A stretch of DNA of 20,000 bases from an uncultured virus (IMG/VR IMGVR_UViG_3300035145_001531) (Duplodnaviria > Heunggongvirae > Uroviricota > Caudoviricetes), in IMG/VR virus record IMGVR_UViG_3300035145_001531. One strand, written 5' to 3'. The position numbers were made by a program, and so were the translations under genes. Numbering within the stretch: the stretch's first letter is position 1; each line of letters opens with the position of its first letter. Positions 5,540 to 17,968 of the stretch are shown here, one piece after another. The notes beneath the pieces were generated by a model. The model did not search any database, was not told the DNA's origin, and worked only from the letters and a program-made list of their open reading frames with translations.

Positions 5540-6193
5540 ATGAGTGAGAAGAAAAAGACAATAGCTGAGCAGGCAGATGATATTAGGAAAGAGTTAGACG
5601 ATTTAATCGGAGATAGTCCGCTAAACGTAGAGAACGATCCTAAAGATTTACCTATTCAGTCAAAACCAACGGCATTAGCTCCGATGGTTAACTATACAGA
5701 ATTAAAAGCAGGTGCAACTAAAAAGGCACAAAAAACCATTACTTCTCTGATGAAATTTTATCTGGATGCAGATATTATTGAGAAGGATGAGTATATTAAA
5801 GCTAAGAAGCAAATGGATGAGATGACAATGTCTTCTCTAATTTATCAATTGCAAGCAGGTGAAAGAGCCCTAACTACTCTATTAGAAACTATCGACTCAG
5901 GTGAATTAGCACCTAGAATGTTTGAAGTACTAGCAACTTTACAGAAGTCAATGTTAGATATTATCAAATCTCAGACCATGTATCTGATGGCTGCAGAAGA
6001 AGGTACTAAAAGAATTGCTAGAGATATAGAGATCTATCAACAGAGACAGAATCAAACTGAGATTGAAGGAGCAGGTGGAGATACTAGTAATAAAAATATC
6101 CAAAGAGGTACAAAAGACTTAATGGCCGCTATCCGCGCAGGTATCGATGGTGCAAACGCGGACATTGAAGATGTTGAACCAACAGAAGAATAA
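5540..6193 (+). CDS. terS: Terminase small subunit (T4 gp16-like)
   Basis: Directly upstream of terL with TAATG stop/start overlap. PRMFEVLATLQKSMLD and NIQRGTKDLM resemble the gp16-family PRxYEV and GSTxEL motifs; predicted helical. Confidence 0.72.
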   Translation: MSEKKKTIAEQADDIRKELDDLIGDSPLNVENDPKDLPIQSKPTALAPMVNYTELKAGATKKAQKTITSLMKFYLDADIIEKDEYIKAKKQMDEMTMSSLIYQLQAGERALTTLLETIDSGELAPRMFEVLATLQKSMLDIIKSQTMYLMAAEEGTKRIARDIEIYQQRQNQTEIEGAGGDTSNKNIQRGTKDLMAAIRAGIDGANADIEDVEPTEE

Positions 6194-8025
6194 TGTCAGA
6201 CTACGTAGGAGATAATAAATGGATTCCGAAAGAGGAAGGGCCACAAGCCGCCTCGGAAAGAATTGTTTGGTCCACCAAGCAAATCAATGACTTATTGGTT
6301 GCTATGGACCAGGGTTATCGTCCTAAGATTAAGTTACCATTCTATGAGGGTAGACAATTTCTAAAGAAAGGTAATATTGTATTTGAATATACTGACGAGG
6401 AAATTCAAGAGTTGGCTAGATGCGCCGCTGATATTGTGTACTTTGCAGAGAAGTACGCTGTGGTAATGACGGATAATGGTATTCAAAAGGTAAAACTAAG
6501 AGATTACCAAATCGAGATGTTGAGGAATTTCCAAAATGAAAGATTTAATATCGTATTGGCATCTCGCCAGATGGGTAAAACCGTAACGGCATCTATCTTT
6601 AATGCTTGGTATCTGACATTTAATATGGACAAGAACACTCTATTACTTGCCAACAAATCTGACTCAACAAAAGAAATTATTGATAAAGCCAAGACCGTAA
6701 TTGAGAACTTACCGTTCTACATGAAGCCTGGTATTATTAAATATGACGTGATGAATGTTCGTTGTGATAATGGTTGTCGTCTAATGGGACAGTCAACCAC
6801 AGCAAAATCCGGTATTGGTTTTACAATTCACAACCTGTACTTGGACGAGTTTGCACACATTCACCCGTCGATCGCAGACTCTTTCTATGAGAACGTATAT
6901 CCTACGTTGTCCTCGTCGAAAGTCTCAAGAATTACAATTACATCTACACCAAATGGATTTAACAAATTCTACCAAATATACGCAGCAGCAGATCGCGGCG
7001 ATAATGAATATCATGCTATGCGTATCGACTGGTGGCAACATCCAGACCGAGACGAAGAATGGTATGAAAGAGAGTTAAAGAACTTAGGCTCAATTGAGGC
7101 ATTCAATAAACAGTACGGTAATGAGTTCGTTAGTTCGTCTAACCTACTACTCGATCCGGTGGATATGAAGAAGATGCGAAAGAGAATGAGGCCTTATGTT
7201 TATCATGACTTCGATGAATTTGACTATATCTCAATTGATACAAAAGGATTCCTAGAGTGGGATCCAGAATTTGATATTGATACATGTAAAGATCAAGAGA
7301 ATTTCTGGCTATTCTCGGTAGATATTGCTGAGGGAAATGGTGGTGATTCTTCTGTGATTAATATATTTCAGGTCAATCCTATGAATTCCGATGAGATTAA
7401 GAATGTTGTTAATCCAGGTGCAATGTATGACTTCTTTAAATTTAGCCAAGTCGCTAGGTTTAAATCAAACGAACATGTAATCGAGGATTTTGCAAAGGTA
7501 CTATATACATTGGCGGTTGACATCTTTTACTCTGAGAACGTAAAGATGATTATCGAGTACAACACATACGGTACGGTCTTGTTTAATTATCTAAGACAGA
7601 TCTTCCCTCAAAGAAATGATTTTGATGATGAAATGATCGTTAAATTTAAGCACAGACACGATGGCAGGTCACTAAAACCGGGTATTAAACTAAAATCTGA
7701 TAACAAGGCAATCTTTTGTCAAAATTTTGCAAAGTTATATAAGATAAATAGATTAGATTTAACAGACGAAGTTACAGTGACAGAGGCATCATTATTTGGT
7801 ACACTACCCAACGGTAGTTATGGAGCTCAAATGGGCAACGACGATGTGATTATGACTTGCATTACTGCGACTGAGTTTTTTAACACTACTGACTATGCAG
7901 ATTTTGTAGAAGAGATATTAGATTTCGTAGACCCAGAACTCCATGATGAGATGGAAGCTATACTTTTTAGAGATAGTGACCAACAAGGAGATTTGCAGTA
8001 TGATATTTATGACCTGTTGAAATAA
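6193..8025 (+). CDS. terL: Terminase large subunit (T4 gp17-like)
   Basis: LRDYQ adenine-binding motif, Walker A SRQMGKT, Walker B LYLDEFAH, coupling motif TSTPNG, nuclease motifs VDIAEG and DDVIM. No intein or intron evident. Confidence 0.96.
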   Translation: MSDYVGDNKWIPKEEGPQAASERIVWSTKQINDLLVAMDQGYRPKIKLPFYEGRQFLKKGNIVFEYTDEEIQELARCAADIVYFAEKYAVVMTDNGIQKVKLRDYQIEMLRNFQNERFNIVLASRQMGKTVTASIFNAWYLTFNMDKNTLLLANKSDSTKEIIDKAKTVIENLPFYMKPGIIKYDVMNVRCDNGCRLMGQSTTAKSGIGFTIHNLYLDEFAHIHPSIADSFYENVYPTLSSSKVSRITITSTPNGFNKFYQIYAAADRGDNEYHAMRIDWWQHPDRDEEWYERELKNLGSIEAFNKQYGNEFVSSSNLLLDPVDMKKMRKRMRPYVYHDFDEFDYISIDTKGFLEWDPEFDIDTCKDQENFWLFSVDIAEGNGGDSSVINIFQVNPMNSDEIKNVVNPGAMYDFFKFSQVARFKSNEHVIEDFAKVLYTLAVDIFYSENVKMIIEYNTYGTVLFNYLRQIFPQRNDFDDEMIVKFKHRHDGRSLKPGIKLKSDNKAIFCQNFAKLYKINRLDLTDEVTVTEASLFGTLPNGSYGAQMGNDDVIMTCITATEFFNTTDYADFVEEILDFVDPELHDEMEAILFRDSDQQGDLQYDIYDLLK

Positions 8026-8081: not shown

Positions 8082-10940
8082 ATGGCATTAAGTCCTCAAT
8101 TACTACAGTTCAAAAGCTCAGGCGTATATCGTCTAGAGTTTGACAAGTCACAGACTGTTAACATTCCTGCGGAAACTATCAGACTAGTTGTAGGTAGATC
8201 TAATAAAGGTCCTTACAATACTCCAGTTCTAGTAGAAGATGTAGAGCAATTCAAGCAAGTTTTCGGTGGTGTAGACAAGTCATTAGAAAGAAAAAACATG
8301 TTCTTCCACAGATCAGCGATCGAAGCTCTGTCTAGAGGTCCTATCTTAGCGTTAAACCTAACTACTGCAGATCCAGATGATAAGGTGAGTGTATTCTCTC
8401 CTGCAACTAACTCTTCACAGGAAGGTTTAAGCGGTAACAGTACTCAGGCATCAGAAGATTCTGCTAATAGCTTTAGCGAAGTATTTGATACTGATAAATT
8501 CTGGGTACCTTCAGATGAGAAGCTACTAGCTGCTACTGCAGAAGATACAAACCACGCAATTTCTTTTGTTAATATCAAACAAGACCCAATCACAGTTATT
8601 ATTAGACAAGCTGCTGATGTTAGAGGTTTTGAATTAACAGCAAGAGAATGGTACGGTGAATCAAACATTCCAGAAGGTATTGATGCGGATGAATACGTAT
8701 CAGACTATATGGTTGATGTATTTGTATTCAAAGGTAAATTTGACGCAGAAGAGTTAAATAACGATCCTAACTACGGTGAGTATTTTGATGCTGACGGTCT
8801 ACTTAAAGCTCAATTTGCTAAATTCGCTGGTTTAAGAGAAGTAACTTTATTAGCACAATACAATGGTGTATCTTTAATCCCTGAATTTATTGATGCAGAA
8901 GGTAATCAAATGTACATCGAGACTCTAATTAATCTAGAGGCTAGAAGAACAGGTTTATTCTGTGCGGTACAGGAAGATGCACTTCCACAAATTGACTTAA
9001 TTGGTAATAACTTTGACATCTACCAAGATTACGAAGTTTTATCTCATAAAGTAAATCAAGAAAGAGCTCCTCAAACAGCTAACCTAACTGCTTATGCAGG
9101 TGTATGTCACGTTGACGGTGCTATTTTAACTATTAACGGCGGCGGTAACTTAACAGCTGCTAATATCGCATTAGACGGTATCGCAGAAGGTAAATGGTTA
9201 GAAGCAGCTATTGGTGGTGAATATGTTAAAATCGACGACGTTAGCGATATTAACGGAGGCGGTGTAATTATCACAGCTACTGGTAATATTTCTAAAGGTT
9301 ATGAAAAATTCACAGCAGCAAATCCTGCAACATGGCAAACTCCTACTACTATTACTGTTGATGCTAACGGTAACTTAGTCTTAGCAGATGCTCCATTTAA
9401 CTACGGTAACTTACAAGGTGCTGCTGGTTACTACCTACTATCTGAAAATGATGGTGAGTATGTAGAAATCCACTCGGTAACTTTAGATAACGTTACTGGT
9501 GCAGTAACTATTTCTCCAGCAGGCTCTCTTGGATTTAGCGCAGATTATGCTGGTGCTAACCAAATCCAACTAGCAGTTTCTGAGAAAACTATCAATACTG
9601 CATTTACAGCATGGACTCTAAGCCCTAACGCTAGAGCAGAGATGATTCCTACTTTAGGCGCAGGCTGGGACTTTACTCCAAACGGTGCTGGTAGATTTAC
9701 ATTCTCAGGAGATTCTACAGCTTCTGCATGGAACGCTAATATCAAAGTAGGTATGTACGTACCAGGTGATGGCGGTAAATTAGCTAGAATCAAGAAAATC
9801 GTTAAAGAAGTAAACGGAGACGTAACTTACTACAAATTTGAAACACACAGAGTAGTTACTAATAGACCTCCATACGCTCTTAAGAGATATGAAGAAACTG
9901 CTGGTTTCTACAAGACGTTCCCTCTAGAAGGTGCAACTCAAACTGAGAAACTAATTGGAGGTTCAGACGGCTTACTATCAGCTATTAAGCCAGGTACTGG
10001 TTTAGGTAACGCTTTAGTTGATAAAGACAATATTACATTCAGATATGTTGTTGATACATTTGGATCTTTAGAAAACGGAGGTCTTTTAAATAAAGAAGAA
10101 CTTTCTCTACTATGTAAAGAAAGACAGAATGCTTCTGCAATTCTTAACGCACCGATGGTGAAAGAATTCAAGGCTTCTACTAACCCTTCATTCCTAGATT
10201 CAAATACTGGTGCATTTAACGTGAACCACGTAGCAACTGGAGGTAACTTAGAAACTAACCCAACAGCTCTTTACACATTACCATCGATCAACGAGGGTGC
10301 TAACTACGCATTCTACTACGGTCCTGGTCTTAATGTAATCGAGAACGGTAGAACTAAAGTTATTCCACCAGCAGCTTACATCTCAAACAACTATATCGAT
10401 AAATATACAGATGCATTACCTTGGTCAATCATCGCAGGCCCAAGAAGAGGTGTTGTAGGTGGTACAGGTGTACAATCTCTAGAATTTGCATTCGATAAAT
10501 TCGACAGAGACGTACTTGAGCCATTCGGTTACAACCCAATCGTATTCGAAAGAGGCGTTGGTTTAACAATCAAAGGTAATAAAACTGCACAGCAAGGTAT
10601 TCAGTCTGCTCTATCTTCAGCACACGTAAGAGAAGCTCTTATCTACATTGAAGATGGTTTAGCTGAAATCCTTAAGAACTACTTGTTCGAGTTTAACAAT
10701 GCTCAAACTAGATTAGAAATCAAAACTCTAGCTGATAACTTTATGGAGTCAGTGAAGAAAGATGGTGGTGTATACGACTACAAGAACATCATGGACACTT
10801 CTAACAACACAACTGAGGTGATCGACAACAACATGGGTATTCTTGACACATTCGTTGAGCCAGTTAAAGGTCTTGAGATTCTAGTATCGAGAGTAACTGT
10901 TCTAAATACAGGTGAAATCGCAACAGGTAACTTTGCATAA
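8082..10940 (+). CDS. gp18: Contractile tail sheath protein (gp18-like) with large central insertion
   Basis: N-terminal SSGVYRLEFDKS and GPYNTPVLV; C-terminal PWSIIAGPRRGVV, YNPIVF, GNKT, HVRE, YLFEFNNAQTR, VEPVKGLE sheath motifs. Confidence 0.93.
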   Translation: MALSPQLLQFKSSGVYRLEFDKSQTVNIPAETIRLVVGRSNKGPYNTPVLVEDVEQFKQVFGGVDKSLERKNMFFHRSAIEALSRGPILALNLTTADPDDKVSVFSPATNSSQEGLSGNSTQASEDSANSFSEVFDTDKFWVPSDEKLLAATAEDTNHAISFVNIKQDPITVIIRQAADVRGFELTAREWYGESNIPEGIDADEYVSDYMVDVFVFKGKFDAEELNNDPNYGEYFDADGLLKAQFAKFAGLREVTLLAQYNGVSLIPEFIDAEGNQMYIETLINLEARRTGLFCAVQEDALPQIDLIGNNFDIYQDYEVLSHKVNQERAPQTANLTAYAGVCHVDGAILTINGGGNLTAANIALDGIAEGKWLEAAIGGEYVKIDDVSDINGGGVIITATGNISKGYEKFTAANPATWQTPTTITVDANGNLVLADAPFNYGNLQGAAGYYLLSENDGEYVEIHSVTLDNVTGAVTISPAGSLGFSADYAGANQIQLAVSEKTINTAFTAWTLSPNARAEMIPTLGAGWDFTPNGAGRFTFSGDSTASAWNANIKVGMYVPGDGGKLARIKKIVKEVNGDVTYYKFETHRVVTNRPPYALKRYEETAGFYKTFPLEGATQTEKLIGGSDGLLSAIKPGTGLGNALVDKDNITFRYVVDTFGSLENGGLLNKEELSLLCKERQNASAILNAPMVKEFKASTNPSFLDSNTGAFNVNHVATGGNLETNPTALYTLPSINEGANYAFYYGPGLNVIENGRTKVIPPAAYISNNYIDKYTDALPWSIIAGPRRGVVGGTGVQSLEFAFDKFDRDVLEPFGYNPIVFERGVGLTIKGNKTAQQGIQSALSSAHVREALIYIEDGLAEILKNYLFEFNNAQTRLEIKTLADNFMESVKKDGGVYDYKNIMDTSNNTTEVIDNNMGILDTFVEPVKGLEILVSRVTVLNTGEIATGNFA

Positions 10941-10978: not shown

Positions 10979-11536
10979 ATGGCTTTACCACATTATTCAG
11001 AGGACCAAACTAGCAAGAAAGGTAGAAACTTTGAGCCAGTACAGGCTAACCTGTTCGAGGTAACAATTTTACCTCCTGCTGGTGTTGCTGGACAAGAGTT
11101 CCTTTTACAGCACGTTAATTCAATCTCTGGTTTAGATGCTCTAGCTCCTGCGGTTGACGCAATCGGTCAAAAGTATAAGTTTGCAGAAAGAAATTATGCA
11201 GGCATGCCAGGTGCGACTTCAGTTGATATTACAGTTAACTTCTCTCTAAACCTGAACGATTCAAACCAAGCGTACCTATATAAAACATTAAGACAATGGT
11301 ACAGAGCTCAGTACAATCCTGAGACTGGTGAAATGGGTCTTAAGAAAAATTATGTTGGTACAATCGTAGTTGTTCAATTCAACAGAGAAGGTGACATCTA
11401 CAGAAAGGTTACACTAGATGATTGTTTCATTACTTCAGGTGTAAACTTAGTAGCAGAACTAAACTATGAGACTGCTGATGCTCAAGCATTAGAAGTAACA
11501 TGGAAGTGTGATACTTACTCAGAAGAATTGAATTAA
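10979..11536 (+). CDS. gp19: Tail tube protein (gp19-like)
   Basis: 185 aa directly after the sheath. NLFEV, RQW, CFITS...LNYE...LEVTW pattern is typical of myophage tubes. Confidence 0.85.
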   Translation: MALPHYSEDQTSKKGRNFEPVQANLFEVTILPPAGVAGQEFLLQHVNSISGLDALAPAVDAIGQKYKFAERNYAGMPGATSVDITVNFSLNLNDSNQAYLYKTLRQWYRAQYNPETGEMGLKKNYVGTIVVVQFNREGDIYRKVTLDDCFITSGVNLVAELNYETADAQALEVTWKCDTYSEELN

Positions 11537-11850: not shown

Positions 11851-12855
11851 ATGAGCGAAGACAACAAAAATTTGACTCCTGAAGAGGAAAGAATGGCCAA
11901 GGCTTTAGAAGCTAAAGACCAGATCAACGAGCGTCAAGTAGAATCTACCAATGAAGACGCTAAAGGTATTGAAGCTGCTGTCGCAGCAGGGGGCCTAGGT
12001 AGAGTTAATATGGCTGATTTTGGACCAGATCGAGCACAATCATCTGATAGTGCATTGGGCTGGCATGTGTTAGACCAAACAACTTTACCATCAAAAGGTA
12101 AATTCTATCCTGCTGACAGTGTTATCAAGATTAGATCTGCTAAAGCAGCCGAAATTAGACACTTCTCAACGATGGATGAAAACAACTACATCGATATGGA
12201 AGACAAGCTAAATTCCATTGTAGAATCTTGTTCACAGATGACTTCTGGTAATAAGAGACTATCCTACAAAGATATTTTAGAAGAGGATAGAATTATCTTA
12301 TTATTAAGTATCAGAGATCTGACTTTCCCAGAGCCAGAGAATAAGCTGATGTTAAGAGGTAAAACTGAGAAGACTAAAAAGACTGTTGATATTGAATTAT
12401 CAATCAGAAACTTAGTACCTACAGTTATCGATGAAGAGATCGAGAAATACTACGATGATAAAGCTAGAACCTATGTTATTAAAACTCGTTCTGCTGGTGA
12501 GGTTAGAATGCACCCTCCAACAATTGGCGTGATGCAAGAAGTTACTTCATACCTAAAAGACAGACAAGAGAAAGATGTAGAGTTCGATAAAGCTTTCATT
12601 CAAGTACTACCTTATGTACAATCTGACTGGAGAACATTAGGTCTTAGTAAGATCTTCCAATTAGAGATTGACTACAAGGCGTGGGATGAAAAGAAATTTA
12701 TGGTGATTTATCGATTAGCAGAAAGAATGCGAATCGGTGTAACAGCAAACCTGGAAAAAGAAGTAGATGGAGAAATTGCGTCTGCCCCTCTTGAGTTCCC
12801 AGGTGGCATCAAAAGTCTTTTCATTATTTCAGATCTCGCTGGAGAACTACTTTAA
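11851..12855 (+). CDS. Tail assembly chaperone / baseplate-hub-like protein (T4 gp26/gp51-like N-terminal part)
   Basis: LPSKGKFYP...IKIR motif and EDRIILLLSIR. Located between the tube and tape measure genes. Confidence 0.65.
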   Translation: MSEDNKNLTPEEERMAKALEAKDQINERQVESTNEDAKGIEAAVAAGGLGRVNMADFGPDRAQSSDSALGWHVLDQTTLPSKGKFYPADSVIKIRSAKAAEIRHFSTMDENNYIDMEDKLNSIVESCSQMTSGNKRLSYKDILEEDRIILLLSIRDLTFPEPENKLMLRGKTEKTKKTVDIELSIRNLVPTVIDEEIEKYYDDKARTYVIKTRSAGEVRMHPPTIGVMQEVTSYLKDRQEKDVEFDKAFIQVLPYVQSDWRTLGLSKIFQLEIDYKAWDEKKFMVIYRLAERMRIGVTANLEKEVDGEIASAPLEFPGGIKSLFIISDLAGELL

Positions 12856-13102
12856 GACTAAGTTCTACCTGGGTGTCCATCTTAGGATGCAGCCTAGCGA
12901 GATTGAAAACATGTACTACTATGAATATTGGTATTACGTGAAGAATCTGGCGGACTACATCAAGAATAAGAATAAAGCAAACGAGGACCAACAAGAACAG
13001 GCGAATAAACAGCAGAGTGATATGTCCTCTAAGTATAAAGCGCCAAAGATGCCTAAGGTCCCTACATTTAAGCAACCCTCGATGAAGATGCCTAAATTGT
13101 AG
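12767..13102 (+). CDS. Downstream tail-chaperone ORF (gp51-like); probably the C-terminal part of a frameshift fusion, true start uncertain
   Basis: ISLENYFKTKFYLGVHLRMQPSEIENMYYYEY resembles the SLENYYKTNF...ELENM motif of T4-like gp51 annotations. It overlaps the upstream ORF in the +1 frame. Confidence 0.65.
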   Translation: MEKLRLPLLSSQVASKVFSLFQISLENYFKTKFYLGVHLRMQPSEIENMYYYEYWYYVKNLADYIKNKNKANEDQQEQANKQQSDMSSKYKAPKMPKVPTFKQPSMKMPKL

Positions 13103-13103
13103 A

Positions 13104-13115
13104 GATATATAAATA
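13104..13115 (+). promoter_or_regulatory. Late-type promoter motif GATATATAAATA (contains TATAAATA)
   Basis: Immediately after the TAG at 13100-13102 and upstream of the tape measure gene. Confidence 0.72.
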
Positions 13116-13121
13116 GAGTAT

Positions 13122-13156
13122 AGGGGTATGTTTCCCGGAGCATACCCCTTACTTTT
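13122..13156 (+). terminator. Strong stem-loop: terminator/attenuator or 5' leader hairpin
   Basis: Perfect 9-bp inverted repeat AGGGGTATG (13122-13130) / CATACCCCT (13141-13149), extendable by G:U pairs, followed by an imperfect TACTTTT tail. Confidence 0.55.
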
Positions 13157-13177
13157 AAAAATAAGGAGCTGACCTAA

Positions 13178-16100
13178 GTGAATTTAAAGTTTATTCAGAA
13201 TGCCTTTGATCGTCTCGGTCAAGATGGTGAACTTTTACAACAAATTAGTGCCAATACCCAAGTTACGGCTGAAGCTGTAGTTAAGGGTGGTGAACTGTTT
13301 GATCGTATCGATCGAATGGTGCTCGCTTTAGAGAAAATCGAGAAAAATACTAAATCAGGTAAAGGCGGTATTCAAGAGGCTATTGTTTTAAAGCTTGTAG
13401 CTCCAACACTTAAGCCAATCGGTTTAGGTATGCAATTTATTGTTGATGCATTAAATTCTCTGCCGGATGCAAAAGAGGCTGGCGAGAAAATGGATGCGTT
13501 AACAAAAGGCCTAGTTGTACTGGGCGAGGTGGGTAAATCTATTCTACAGTTTGCCGCCTATATGATTGTTGCAACCCCACTTCTGGTTGTAACAGCACTA
13601 CTGGCACCAATCTGGGTGGCTGGTATTTGGGTTATTACTAAAGGACTTATGTGGGCCACAGATGGCCTAGATAAGAAGCGATTAAAATCTATTGCATTAT
13701 TAGGTGATGTAGGTAAATCTCTATTCCAATTAGCAGGCTATTTATCTCTAGTAGCATTATTGACTATTCCAGCAATGATCGGTGTACTAGGAGCTGCGTT
13801 AATTGTAATGGGTATTGCTGGTATCTTTAAGATATTAGAGACGATTGGTCTAAAGCCTAAGAAAATTGATAAGATGGGTGACGCCCTGAAATCATTGGCA
13901 CTAGGACTTCTAGGTCTATCATTAACCTTAGCACTTATTAGCCTTATTGTAAAACCAGTTTTGATTGGACTTGCAGTTTCTGCTGCGGTAATTTTAGGTG
14001 TTGGTCTAGTATTCTACCTATTAGATATTCTAAAGGTAAATAAAAAGATGAAGAAGACCTCGCTGGCTCTGATGTTTGCCGGCTTGGCAATTGTAGTATT
14101 AGCTGCATCTGTGATGTTGGCAGCCGCTATGTTACCAGGTTTTGAGAGTATTTTAACTGTACTTGGTGTCGTCGCTGGTATTGCGTTAGTATTCTATGTA
14201 GCCGGAATGGGCTTTAGTCAGATCTTGAAAGGATCGCTGGCAATGCTTGTTGCTGGTGTTGCACTAATTGTTCTTGGCTTTGGTGTTAAAATTATGACAG
14301 CTGCAGTACCAGATCTGATGACTGGTCTGGGCATGATTGCCCTAATTGCAGGTTTGGGTGTAGTATTTGCACTGATTGGAGCCTATGAAGCGGGTATGAT
14401 GACAGGTATACCTCTAACTATTACATTAGGTTCTATTGCAATGATGTTAGTCGGTGTATCATTATTAGTATTAAGCCTAGGTGTGAAACAAATCGCAGAG
14501 GCTGTAGCACCACTCTCATTAGAGAAAGTGGGTATGATTGCACTCGTTATAGGCGGTATTGGTGCTGGATTTGCTGCTGCTGGTTTTGTAGCACCTCTTA
14601 TGATGTTAGGTGCTGGAGCATTTTTACTTGCTGGTGGCGCACTAATAGCAGTCGGAAAGGGACTTGAAATAATTGCAAAATTAGACTTCAATAAAATGGG
14701 GTCTATTGATAAAAAGGGTGGTGGTGCGTTTAACTGGTCTGGTGAAACAACCGCAGGCTTCTTAGGGATGTTTAAGAGAAAGAAAACTAACCTAGAAGTT
14801 GCAATGGAAGCCGTTGCAGACTCAGTATCACTAGGACCTCTGTCTATCATAGGAGTTATGGCAGGTGCGCCAACGTTACTATTAGCAGGTGCAGCCTTAA
14901 CAGCAATCTCTAAAGGTCTATTGAAATTTGACGAGATTAGCGGTAAGATGGACCTGAAAGCATTAGGTGTTAATGTTGCCTTCATGACAAGCGTACTTGC
15001 TGATGCATTTGGCGAAATAGGTACAAAATATCCAGGTGGTAAAAAATCTCTATTTTCGTCTATCTTCGGCGGTGGAAAACAGTCAGCTGTGGCAGATGGT
15101 ATTTCGTCTACGATGGGTATGGGAGGCGCCTTAAGTTCAATTGCTCGTGGTATGCAGGCAATGGCGAATCTTAAGTTCCCTACAAAATACGATAAAGAGG
15201 GTAACCCAATTGAGTTTGAAACAATGGACTCTGATGCTCCTATTAGAGTTTCTGTTAATGCGGCAATGATTACGGGCGTCTTAGCAGATGTCTTTGGTAG
15301 AATAGGTACAAAATACCCAGGCGGTAAGAAATCTCTAATGGCATCTATCTTTGGTGGTGGAAAACAATCACCTGTTGCAGATGGTATCTCTGCTGTAATG
15401 GGCATGGGTGATGCCTTGACAGGTATCGCAAAAGGTTTCCAAGCAATGGCTAATCTTAACTTCCCAGTTGAGTGGGATAAAGAGGGTAAGCCTATTAAAT
15501 TCGAAACAATCGATATTGCAACCAACCTACCTAAGGTAATGGCGAATACACAGATGATTGTACAAGGTCTATCTGGTGTCTTTGCTGAAATAGGTAAAAA
15601 TCCAGATGCACAAAGATCTTGGTTCTTTGGTAGATCGACAGTCCAAAAAGGTATTGACCTAGTTGCAAGTATCGGTACACCTCTATATAATTTAGCAAGT
15701 GGGGTACAAGCAATGGCGAACTTAAAGTTCCCTACTGGATTTGACAAAGACGGTAAAGCGACAGGTTATGAGACTATAACATCTCCAGATCAATTAGTGG
15801 CTAAGGTGGGTAAAAATACTCAGTTGCTAGTTCAGGCCTTAGTAGAAACATTTACTATAATTGGACAAGATGAAGGTGCAAATGACGGTGGATTCTGGTG
15901 GTGGCAAGCGTCTTCATTTGAAAAGGGTGTTGAGGTAGTTAAATCAATTGCAGAGCCGTACAAGAATCTTGGTGAAGGTATTACAAAAATTGTTGAGATT
16001 GTTGGTAAACTGGATTCAAAGGCTTTTGCCGGTAAAGTACAAGATATTATTTCAGTCTTTACGTCCGATGCTGCTACAGGTACAGATATTGATCTAATAA

Positions 16101-16723
16101 ATAATAGAAGATGGTTAACTGAATCTATTGGTGAAACCTTCGAGAAATTAGGTAAAGCTGTGCCAAGTATTTCTACTGCACTTTCTAGTTTTAAAGGCGA
16201 AGCAGGCTATGCGTTCTACCGAACATTCTTTGGACCTACTGATGAAGGGGCTAGAGCGGAAGGATATAATGCACAGAAGTGGTTATGGATGCGCATGGGC
16301 GAGGCTATGCTGCAGACTAAAGAATCTATGCCGGCTATCTCTCAAGCCATTAACGCCATGGATATGGAGAAACTGGTTGAGTCTAGAAAAATGTTTGAGG
16401 CTCTAGCAGTTCTAAGTGAAGGCGGTGAACCGGCAGATATTTTAGCAGCGATGGGTGAGTCCCTAGAAGAGGCTTTACAAAAACTGGCTAACATGCTATC
16501 AGAATTTAAAGATACTGTCGCAGAAGGTAACGCTAGTACTGGCGGCGCACTTGAGGGTGTGAAGAACGCTGTCGGTGGTGTAGTATCTGCAGTTACGGGT
16601 GGTAAAAGTTCTACACCTTCGGGTAATAATGCAGATGTCGTTCGTGCAGTTCAAAATCTACAAAAAGTATTAATAACACAGGGTATCAAAGTCAAAGATG
16701 ACGGCGGTGGCTGGTTCGGCTAA
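13178..16723 (+). CDS. Tape measure protein-like (1181 aa)
   Basis: Follows tube and chaperone genes; Ala/Gly/Leu-rich, with many long hydrophobic segments and internal repeats. GTG start preceded by AAGGAG. Confidence 0.75.
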   Translation: MNLKFIQNAFDRLGQDGELLQQISANTQVTAEAVVKGGELFDRIDRMVLALEKIEKNTKSGKGGIQEAIVLKLVAPTLKPIGLGMQFIVDALNSLPDAKEAGEKMDALTKGLVVLGEVGKSILQFAAYMIVATPLLVVTALLAPIWVAGIWVITKGLMWATDGLDKKRLKSIALLGDVGKSLFQLAGYLSLVALLTIPAMIGVLGAALIVMGIAGIFKILETIGLKPKKIDKMGDALKSLALGLLGLSLTLALISLIVKPVLIGLAVSAAVILGVGLVFYLLDILKVNKKMKKTSLALMFAGLAIVVLAASVMLAAAMLPGFESILTVLGVVAGIALVFYVAGMGFSQILKGSLAMLVAGVALIVLGFGVKIMTAAVPDLMTGLGMIALIAGLGVVFALIGAYEAGMMTGIPLTITLGSIAMMLVGVSLLVLSLGVKQIAEAVAPLSLEKVGMIALVIGGIGAGFAAAGFVAPLMMLGAGAFLLAGGALIAVGKGLEIIAKLDFNKMGSIDKKGGGAFNWSGETTAGFLGMFKRKKTNLEVAMEAVADSVSLGPLSIIGVMAGAPTLLLAGAALTAISKGLLKFDEISGKMDLKALGVNVAFMTSVLADAFGEIGTKYPGGKKSLFSSIFGGGKQSAVADGISSTMGMGGALSSIARGMQAMANLKFPTKYDKEGNPIEFETMDSDAPIRVSVNAAMITGVLADVFGRIGTKYPGGKKSLMASIFGGGKQSPVADGISAVMGMGDALTGIAKGFQAMANLNFPVEWDKEGKPIKFETIDIATNLPKVMANTQMIVQGLSGVFAEIGKNPDAQRSWFFGRSTVQKGIDLVASIGTPLYNLASGVQAMANLKFPTGFDKDGKATGYETITSPDQLVAKVGKNTQLLVQALVETFTIIGQDEGANDGGFWWWQASSFEKGVEVVKSIAEPYKNLGEGITKIVEIVGKLDSKAFAGKVQDIISVFTSDAATGTDIDLINNRRWLTESIGETFEKLGKAVPSISTALSSFKGEAGYAFYRTFFGPTDEGARAEGYNAQKWLWMRMGEAMLQTKESMPAISQAINAMDMEKLVESRKMFEALAVLSEGGEPADILAAMGESLEEALQKLANMLSEFKDTVAEGNASTGGALEGVKNAVGGVVSAVTGGKSSTPSGNNADVVRAVQNLQKVLITQGIKVKDDGGGWFG
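15020..15780 (+). repeat. Internal coding tandem repeats (about three units; 285 and 267 nt spacing)
   Basis: GCAATGGC(G/T)AA (QAMANLxFP) recurs at 15158, 15443 and 15710. GGTACAAAATA(T/C)CCAGG (GTKYPGGKKSL) recurs at 15020 and 15305. Confidence 0.9.
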
Positions 16724-17669: not shown

Positions 17670-17754
17670 GGAGAGGTGGCAGAGTGGTCGAATGCACCGG
17701 TCTTGAAAACCGGCGATCTTCACGGGTCCGGGGGTTCGAATCCCTCCCTCTCCG
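17670..17754 (+). tRNA. tRNA-Ser, anticodon UGA; CCA not encoded
   Basis: Acceptor stem GGAGAGG/CCTCTCC, D-arm with GG, anticodon stem CCGGT/ACCGG with loop CTTGAAA (TGA at 17704-17706), long variable arm, T-arm GGGGG-TTCGAAT-CCCTC, discriminator G followed by CAA. Confidence 0.96.
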
Positions 17755-17767
17755 CAAAATTAAAATT

Positions 17768-17968
17768 ATGAAGAAGTTTTATAGAAGTTCAACAAATAGA
17801 AAATTAAGCGGCATCTGTGGTGGCCTAGGTGATTACACTAACTCAGATCCTATCTTATGGAGACTTCTCTTTGTGATCGGATTCTTTATCCCTTCTATTC
17901 CAATTCTAATATTATACCTTATTTTTACGTTAATTACAGAATCTAATGAAAACATTACCGACATTTAA
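17768..17968 (+). CDS. pspC: PspC-domain membrane protein (66 aa)
   Basis: KKFYRSSTNRKLSGICGGLGDYTNSDPILWRLLFV...LYLIF matches the PspC signature (YRS..R..GVCGGLA.Y...D...VR). Start moved to ATG 17768, downstream of the tRNA. Confidence 0.85.
   Translation: MKKFYRSSTNRKLSGICGGLGDYTNSDPILWRLLFVIGFFIPSIPILILYLIFTLITESNENITDI

Follow-up and report, generated by a model that had tools for sequence, protein, structure and literature searches.

Do two overlapping reading frames in the tail module of an uncultured virus (Caudoviricetes) belong to two genes, or to one gene that ribosomes read in two frames, and in the latter case on which codons would the frame be changed? This question is raised by a 20,000-nt stretch of DNA (IMG/VR record IMGVR_UViG_3300035145_001531), hereafter the window, on whose numbering all coordinates are given. 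In the window a long open reading frame (ORF1) is overlapped at its 3' end by a second one (ORF2) in the +1 register:

11851-12855, + strand: ORF1, frame 1, 334 aa, the short product, ending in ...GGIKSLFIISDLAGELL
12767-13102, + strand: the +1-frame ORF2, open over this interval, 111 codons, overlapping ORF1 by 89 nt

ORF1 ends with GGA GAA CTA CTT TAA G at 12841-12856. A second CTT followed by T is found upstream, in AGT CTT TTC, where CTT begins at 12817, and the first +1-frame ATG past the overlap, at 12887, lies 3' of an ISLENYFKTKF segment. A sequence-only reading of this DNA had described this layout, correctly in every detail, and had suggested that a long tail chaperone is made by a net +1 (or -2) shift at one of the two CTT-T sites. 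Such a shift is well supported by the comparative evidence given below, namely a conserved frame relation, selection on the +1 frame and homology of the extension, and the upstream CUU-UUC, at which ISLENY is kept in the fusion, is the best-supported site.

We propose that ORF1 and the +1-frame ORF2 constitute a single T4 gp26/gp51-type gene that is recoded. The majority of ribosomes would terminate at TAA 12853-12855 and produce a 334-aa gp26-like short form, and a minority would enter the +1 frame on CUU-UUC and produce a long form of ~416 aa, in which a gp51-type extension replaces the last 11-12 residues of ORF1. The slip would be either a +1 movement of peptidyl-tRNA-Leu (CUU to UUU) or a -2 movement of tRNA-Phe (UUC to UUU), the two junctions differing by one Phe, and neither fits the window better than the other. 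Like the lambda G/GT proteins and T4 gp26 and gp51, the two forms may assist hub and tape-measure assembly as non-structural chaperones, with their ratio fixed by the slip frequency. Judging from comparative sequence evidence, it is highly probable that the gene is recoded, and we put the probability that the U-run CUU-UUC is the shift site at about 0.68.

12817-12822, + strand: CTT TTC, the U-run and favoured slip site (+1 CUU to UUU, or -2 tRNA-Phe UUC to UUU)

The first line of evidence is the frame relation itself. The sequence-only reading had named variable frame relationships among homologues as an argument against recoding; instead, the +1 relation was found in every locus examined, and in none of them does ORF2 occupy frame 0 or frame -1. 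In the close family of the window (67-100% identity; 85 sequences, two of which run off the contig), the +1 relation is kept in 83/83 junctions, and the overlap layout is thus more than chance. It is also kept in 80/80 junctions of a second batch of the close family (27 of them new), in all five loci of the L001 lineage, in 65/65 loci of the L090 family (66 sequences, one running off), in 78/78 IMG/VR loci of the P0004 lineage (79 loci, one running off), and in 76/76 complete metagenome loci (four further loci are partial). Contigs recur between these batches, and the wider family was therefore counted as 136 unique 400-nt ORF1 ends. By tblastn, relatives of ORF1 were found in 26 phage records, which include Lak megaphages, uncultured huge phages, Sphingomonas phage PAU, and Chryseobacterium, Flavobacterium and Tenacibaculum phages. 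The +1 relation also holds in PTm1, MA9V-2, Lak-B5, Lak-C1 and three huge uncultured phages (LR745206 and LR756504 among the loci named). In MA9V-1, PAU, MaF61 and pT24, the next annotated small ORF is in the +1 frame, which is open from 104-128 nt 5' of the ORF1 stop. The locus scans were run with a reduced alignment and with individual queries, as the 12 lineages together were too divergent for one.

In an alternative reading, no frameshift occurs and ORF2 is translated alone, from ATG 12767, TTG 12791 or GTG 12803, or else after re-initiation of ribosomes at ATG 12887 once ORF1 has been terminated. Candidate starts for this do exist. In the family of the window, GTG 12803 (at -14) is in frame in 41/41 and TTG 12791 (at -26) in 40/41 unique junctions, which counts against recoding; the window itself has ATG 12767, and several lineages share an ATG close to the QPSEI motif. 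However, neither 12791 nor 12803 is preceded by a Shine-Dalgarno (SD)-like or A-rich leader, and ATG 12767 is absent, being either missing or cut off by TGA, in 23/41 unique junctions. In the L090 family, an ATG ahead of the conserved segment is found in 0/32 unique junctions, and in L174 and L175 the +1 frame has no ATG, GTG or TTG at all ahead of this segment. In MA9V-1 and MA9V-2, the first +1-frame ATG is 58 nt past the ORF1 stop, within the conserved core, and in the window a start at 12887 would lose 22 conserved residues. Furthermore, T4 gp51 has the same extension fused to a gp26-like body. As far as can be read from these sequences, ORF2 is without a usable start of its own in several lineages, and its separate translation seems quite improbable.

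Small stand-alone ORFs are nevertheless called at this place in public annotations, as separate translation would have it. In the deposited records of MA9V-1, PAU, MaF61, pT24 and PTm1 (our loci L002, L003, L004, L005 and L086), ORFs of 40-73 codons follow the ORF1 homologue. The annotated starts of MA9V-1 and PAU lie inside the conserved core, which they truncate. These five records probably need a frameshift join.

The second line of evidence is what ORF2 encodes past the U-run:

12821-13102, + strand: the +1-frame extension, ~93 aa, in which a helical head is followed by a Q/E/K-rich linker and by a conserved C-terminal ...MPKL

ORF2 matches phrog_634, annotated as 'baseplate hub assembly catalyst', with E (expect value) 4.2e-7, its residues 18-79 falling on profile positions 58-119, and the read-through protein (P0003) matches the same profile with E 1.5e-7. 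Among the T4 proteins, residues 147-246 of gp51 (249 aa) match phrog_634 with E 1.2e-23, whereas gp26 (208 aa) gives no match, although both gp26 and gp51 are full-length members of PF12322. From this pattern of matches, gp51 can be described as a gp26-like body with an added extension, the part of gp51 to which ORF2 is equivalent. Pairwise BLAST of ORF2 against the C-terminus of T4 gp51 gave no alignment. By BLASTP, residues 18-83 of ORF2 align with residues 2-63 of the -1-frame extension of cyanophage S-RSM4 (E 2e-10), and from the start of this alignment the homology to the cyanophage extension begins at 12818, on the U-run. As judged from an alignment, the SLFQI-type motif falls outside any overlap in T4 gp51 and Lak phages. 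A relative of 212 kb, estimated to be 76% complete, has one copy of ORF1 and one phrog_634 match, and the two are adjacent.

The C-terminus of the extension is conserved as M/I-P-K/S followed by a hydrophobic last residue; the window doubles this motif (KMPK...MKMPKL) after the Q/E/K-rich linker. By sequence, this C-terminal motif looks like a docking peptide.

The third line of evidence comes from sequence conservation around the junction, where two features overlap:

12784-12870, + strand: a nearly invariant stretch, including 33 nt 5' of the U-run with frozen silent sites
12821-12855, + strand: the dual-coding overlap, read as IISDLAGELL in frame 0 (the ORF1 tail) and as SLFQISLENYF in frame +1

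Among 51 unique sequences of the close family, nucleotide diversity is 0-0.06 in 12784-12870, compared with 0.11-0.41 in the preceding part of ORF1. Frame-0 third positions are variable at 167/176 sites upstream, at 2/11 in 12784-12816 (Fisher 4e-9 against the upstream value), and at 1/13 in 12817-12855, where 4/39 sites are variable overall. Which of the two frames is constrained can be asked from the alleles that occur in the overlap in the wider family (34 unique junction strings). Of the alleles silent only in the +1 frame, 12/18 are realised, compared with 6/22 of those silent only in frame 0 (Fisher 0.024) and 4/41 of those that alter both frames. These counts indicate that both frames are read and that the +1 frame is more constrained than frame 0, which answers the question of frame selection that the sequence-only reading had raised. 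In assemblies of runs X1, X3 and X7, 12784-12858 appears as separate short contig pieces at a depth of 63-130, compared with 5-14 in the flanks. This is as expected if many co-occurring strains share this stretch exactly and differ around it.

The fourth line of evidence is the conservation of the U-run. CTT TTC is present in 78/78 family junctions of the first batch and in 80/80 of the second, and at these codons a run of at least four T is retained in 127/136 unique ORF1 ends of the wider family. In the L090 family, a run of at least four T is found in 34/34 unique junctions, 33 with ATT TTC and one with GTT TTC, and N-TT-TTY is also found in PAU, MaF61, MA9V-1, MA9V-2, PTm1 and L092. Moreover, the U-run occupies the same LF/FF codons as the -1 site T TTT TTC of cyanophage S-RSM4. 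Within the ORFs of the window, an in-frame CTT followed by T occurs 20 times, and an in-frame CTT TTC occurs once, at 12817. Selection, the starting point of the homology, the position of the motif and the conservation of the run together point to a shift at 12821 or immediately 5' of it, for which CUU-UUC is the simplest site.

The -1 frame across the junction is open for 48 codons in the window (12795-12941). In the distant lineages that were compared first, no more than 3-13 codons of it are open, and elsewhere it is widely variable. Since this frame is without homology, a -1 slip on the same U-run would yield an aberrant product.

The other CTT-T site, at the ORF1 stop, offers a different solution:

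12850-12855, + strand: CTT TAA, the last codon of ORF1 and its stop, invariant in the wider family of the window

Here peptidyl-tRNA-Leu would slip +1 from CUU to UUU at CUU-UAA in competition with termination, and the long form would keep the full ORF1 tail and continue with KTKFYL.... The sequence-only reading had likened this site to that of prfB and had tied it to release-factor activity. In prfB, the gene of release factor 2 (RF2), an autoregulatory +1 site consists of an SD-like element, a 3-nt spacer, CUU and a stop codon, and no +1 signal has better precedent than a shift-prone codon ahead of a stop. The invariance of CTT TAA extends to the 9/136 unique ends that have no U-run, Lak phages carry TTT TAA at the stop with no U-run upstream, and T4 gp51 and Lak phages keep a gp26-like tail before the extension. 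Despite these points, a shift at the stop seems unlikely. Already 5' of the stop, selection acts more strongly on the +1 frame than on frame 0, and the homology to the cyanophage extension begins 35 nt 5' of it. The SD-like GGAG (12841-12844) is 5 nt from CTT, not 3, and is changed by G12842C in 10/51 unique sequences, while SD-like motifs precede only 3/20 genes of the window. In addition, no shifty codon precedes the stop in the L090 family (GAA or AAA before TAA in 65/65 loci), and PAU, MaF61, pT24 and PTm1 have TCT, GAG or TTA there; ATT, found before the stop in the MA9V phages, is a candidate for partial re-pairing only. The invariance of both codons can be explained by dual coding, because no Leu codon other than CTT can yield the conserved Phe of the +1 frame, whose conserved Lys comes from TAA. 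Of the two sequences whose conservation the sequence-only reading had proposed to compare, CTTTAA is thus invariant in the wider family, and CTTTTC is constant in the close family, with a run of at least four T in most of the wider one; the favoured site remains CUU-UUC.

In the ORF1 homologues of Lak-B5 and Lak-C1 (L088 and L089), in-frame TAG codons are present, consistent with TAG being read as a residue. These homologues have no U-run at their I-F codons and end in GAT TTT TAA, a candidate for a shifty stop. Ahead of the conserved motif, their extension is longer by ~38 residues.

A further candidate lies two codons 5' of the U-run and was read from the sequence:

12811-12814, + strand: AAA A, an alternative +1 slip site

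A +1 shift on AAA-A would give ...GGIK and then VFSLFQ.... AAA A is a run known to be prone to +1 and -1 shifts, and it is present in pT24 and in L175-178 (GTC AAA AGT TTA TTC), where the U-run has been lost. A shift at this point would keep V-F, which matches I-F of T4 gp51, and the F-to-Y change seen in the TTA TTC lineages is conservative in the +1 frame. In contrast, 3/51 unique sequences of the window family have AAG at this place with the U-run intact, and the run is absent from the L001/L174, PAU, MaF61, MA9V, PTm1, Lak and L090 lineages as well as from the AAA TCT types of the P0004 lineage. We regard a shift on AAA-A as rather improbable, like the separate translation of ORF2.

The frame could also be changed at the level of nucleic acid, by RNA polymerase slippage or by variation in the length of the T run in DNA, so that a minority of templates would be one T shorter. 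This would account for the 399-aa protein P0004, known from one contig, which is encoded in a single frame and whose junction is exactly as expected from a run one T shorter, or equally from a +1 slip at CUU-U. However, the loci fetched with P0004 are two-frame in 78/78 IMG/VR and 76/76 complete metagenome cases, and among them, six IMG/VR and three metagenome loci have 100% identity to P0004 in their best matched segment. A run of four T is, moreover, far shorter than known slippage tracts. Contigs of two RNA and two DNA libraries have no indel at the run, although contigs, which are all that covers the junction, hide rare variants. For these reasons a change at the nucleic-acid level seems very improbable indeed.

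P0004 was also considered as a natural in-frame fusion in support of recoding. It was not counted as such, as it is a singleton and the DNA loci fetched with it (including L245-L249, L262 and L324-L326) are two-frame with the run of four T. Its origin could lie in an error, in the loss of one T, or in gene calling across the shift.

Several observations weigh against a shift on the U-run, or against its being a +1 slip. The A site of CUU-UUC holds neither a stop nor a rare codon (TTC usage is 16 per 1000). The U-run is absent from 9/136 unique ends of the wider family, and also from pT24 and Lak phages; in the type with TCT TTA TTC, neither a U4 nor an A4 run is present at these codons, and another site must therefore serve in those loci. 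In the L090 family, ATT or GTT before the run would leave +1 re-pairing mismatched at the first position, which favours the -2 slip there. RNA stimulators gave no significant signal, with z = -0.94, -0.64, -0.55 and -1.53 for folds of 12780-12816, 12823-12900, 12856-12900 and 12780-12900, respectively, and no shared structure was found in 12 lineages folded alike. In the 121-nt fold (12780-12900), 12798-12806 pairs with 12865-12873 and 12814-12819 with 12854-12859. An Rfam search of 12500-13300 found nothing. Finally, the absence of an indel from the RNA and DNA contigs neither shows nor excludes a shift by the ribosome.

What, then, is the body to which the extension would be joined? The only PHROG match of ORF1 is phrog_36717 (E 4.6e-25), a family whose function is not known; phrog_150 is not matched. 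Two negative results count against a place in the T4 family. ORF1 and the read-through P0003 match no Pfam family at E<=10 and hence have no direct match to PF12322 (T4_baseplate), and pairwise BLAST comparisons of P0003 with T4 gp51, T4 gp26 and S-RSM4 gp26 are not significant. However, the ORF1 homologue of PAU, gp93, scores 33.9 bits on PF12322, above its curated cut-off of 24.5 bits, and is the best of the 4/12 aligned members of the ORF1 family that match PF12322 at E<=1. When the ORF1 family (12 sequences) was compared by hhalign with T4 gp26, T4 gp51 and S-RSM4 gp26, a probability of 90.9% was obtained (E 1.1e-6, 196 columns), with ORF1 residues 90-325 paired with gp26 residues 12-205 and GGIKSLF placed on GLKEFF. 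The relation of the body to the T4 proteins appears to be detectable by profiles only. Other sequence searches gave no lead: the PDB returned one chance-level row (E 0.75), no phage genome was matched by blastn of the region, and a PF12322 search of the nearest record, the 7.8-kb fragment G001, found nothing, with control genomes likewise giving no signal.

The predicted structure points in the same direction. An AlphaFold model of ORF1, built on a 20-sequence alignment, has a predicted local distance difference test (pLDDT) score of 76 and a predicted template modelling (pTM) score of 0.71; residues 69-325 are confident, and the N-terminus is disordered over ~68 residues. Foldseek of this model against BFVD, whose targets are predicted models carrying the names given by depositors, gave 54 matches at E<=0.001. 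Among the 50 matches listed, several are named as baseplate hub subunit or hub assembly protein or chaperone, and the best are PAU-type relatives or nameless. The named ones include a baseplate hub subunit of Bacillus phage SP-15 (1.7e-10), a 'Baseplate hub assembly protein, bacteriophage T4-like' (2e-7) and a hub assembly chaperone of Acidovorax phage ACP17 (9.3e-6). Against the PDB, Foldseek gave 0 matches at E<=0.001. VIA-align of the model against 48,161 chains ranked the HK97 tail assembly chaperone 2ob9_B first (Z 4.8, root-mean-square deviation 9.1, 91 aligned), followed by 3klu_A (Z 3.7) and 3fgx_B (Z 3.5); these top three are phage-related, and none reaches Z 5, so that the values are not reliable. 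Taken together, profile-profile comparison, the modelled fold and the Pfam match of a homologue suggest that ORF1 is a distant member of the T4 gp26/gp51 family of hub-assembly chaperones. The 'tail chaperone' of the sequence-only reading was therefore right in spirit, in that the T4 hub-assembly type is indicated, whereas the link to lambda-type chaperones is a weak hint from the fold.

In a 436-kb relative from the L090 family (G004), a second and weaker ORF1-like gene is found (C1:186083-186709; E 1.3e-12; a 261-codon open frame), ~50 kb from the gene with the putative frameshift. Comparable to the situation in T4, this second gene may represent a distinct gp26-like paralogue.

ORF1 lies within a contractile-tail module, in which the order is terminase, sheath, tube, a 72-codon ORF and ORF1, and it is followed by a long ORF:

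6193-8025: terminase large subunit, in the 5' part of the contractile-tail module
8082-10940, + strand: tail sheath (phrog_34521, E 4.7e-121)
10979-11536, + strand: tail tube (phrog_32623 and phrog_45)
13178-16723, + strand: 1181-codon ORF at the tape-measure position, rich in hydrophobic segments and containing a module that is duplicated internally
17670-17754, + strand: tRNA-Ser (anticodon UGA; ARAGORN; Rfam tRNA, 61.2 bits)

The position ahead of a tape measure gene, which the sequence-only reading had assigned, holds as a position, but Pfam and PHROG searches gave no match for the 1181-codon ORF, whose identity as the tape measure we infer from its position. Its product has ~500 residues of hydrophobic, membrane-like segments, and its translation contains at least two copies of a ~100-residue module (…KYPGGKKSL…FGGGKQS…ADGIS…QAMANL.FP…).

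The tRNA-Ser(UGA) gene overlaps the listed GTG start of a PspC-domain ORF (17684-17968), which probably starts later, considering this overlap and the fact that its domain begins only at residue 30. UCA, the codon read by this tRNA, is the first +1-frame codon past the U-run. It is a matter of speculation whether the phage tRNA is linked to the frameshift, where it might favour a forward shift.

How far the solution proposed for the window extends is a more tentative matter. A net +1 (or -2) shift on a four-U run of sense codons (N-UU-UUY), independent of any stop, could be the conserved route to a gp51-like chaperone in a whole clade of large phages that comprises the marine and wetland lineage of the window, the relatives of Lak megaphages, Sphingomonas phage PAU, and the Tenacibaculum, Chryseobacterium and Flavobacterium jumbo phages. 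As this run lies at the codon pair that carries the -1 U6C heptamer in T4-like cyanophages, the direction of frameshifting would have been switched during the evolution of one gene. We consider this wider picture, clade and route taken together, possible, albeit somewhat short of an even chance.

If one gene does give both a gp26-like and a gp51-like protein, the two genes of T4 would be the unlinked version of the same short/long chaperone scheme, and both T4 proteins, which have stayed poorly understood hub 'catalysts' going by the account in PMC3004832, would gain a testable role. The window would add a forward-shifting version, on a minimal four-U run with a dual-coding overlap, in the clade of PAU, Lak relatives and Bacteroidota jumbo phages. 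Full-text literature searches found no paper reporting a gp26/gp51 frameshift, subscription journals being largely outside their coverage. The result is of use for annotation, since the public records of PAU, MA9V-1, MaF61, pT24 and PTm1 call truncated small ORFs here, and for the study of how +1 and -1 sites are interconverted.

Compared with prfB, the window shares CUU followed by U as the slip codon and has a CUU-stop pair at 12850-12855. Unlike prfB, however, the favoured site has the sense codon UUC in the A site, no conserved SD-like element is found at the right spacing, and nothing indicates feedback by a release factor. Furthermore, the new frame of the window is constrained and homologous from 12818 onward, not only past the stop.

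The likeness to lambda G/GT lies in the arrangement. Two overlapping frames are located just 5' of the tape-measure position, their relation is conserved among homologues, and the short and long forms would have a common N-terminal body and differ by a short extension in the new frame; the weak best PDB fold matches of ORF1, below a reliable level, are also tail assembly chaperones. In contrast to lambda, the net shift in the window would be +1 rather than -1, no X XXY YYZ heptamer is present in frame 0 at 12800-12855, and the body is about three times larger and has no sequence family in common with that of lambda. In the recoding review of Atkins et al. (2016, PMC5009743), the G/GT frameshift is described as conserved in long-tailed phages 'except T4', and the frameshift of the haloarchaeal myovirus HSTV-2 as 'very likely +1'.

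T4 gp26 (208 aa) and gp51 (249 aa) are listed as hub assembly chaperones in Table 2 of Leiman et al. (2010, PMC3004832). ORF1 aligns with the gp26-like body and ORF2 with the gp51 extension. Unlike the T4 pair, which are two divergently transcribed paralogous genes, the window is proposed to have one gene with a +1 overlap that yields both products, and its ORF1 is longer (334 aa, with the disordered N-terminus of ~68 residues) and has no direct PF12322 match.

A further parallel is cyanophage S-RSM4, the one cyanophage locus used for this comparison. According to the main text of Sullivan et al. (2010, PMC3037559), in which the word 'frameshift' is absent, cyanophage gp51 is only ~20% of the usual length, and cyanophage and marine vibriophage gp51 are without the first ~200 residues. 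Like the window, S-RSM4 has a member of the same family, a junction at LF/FF codons after G-L/I-K/A, a homologous extension (E 2e-10) and a short 'gp51' ORF without an adequate start of its own. In S-RSM4, however, the gp26 stop is preceded at a distance of two codons by the canonical -1 heptamer T TTT TTC, whereas in the window a net +1 shift would take place on four U, 11 codons before the stop and with a dual-coding overlap.

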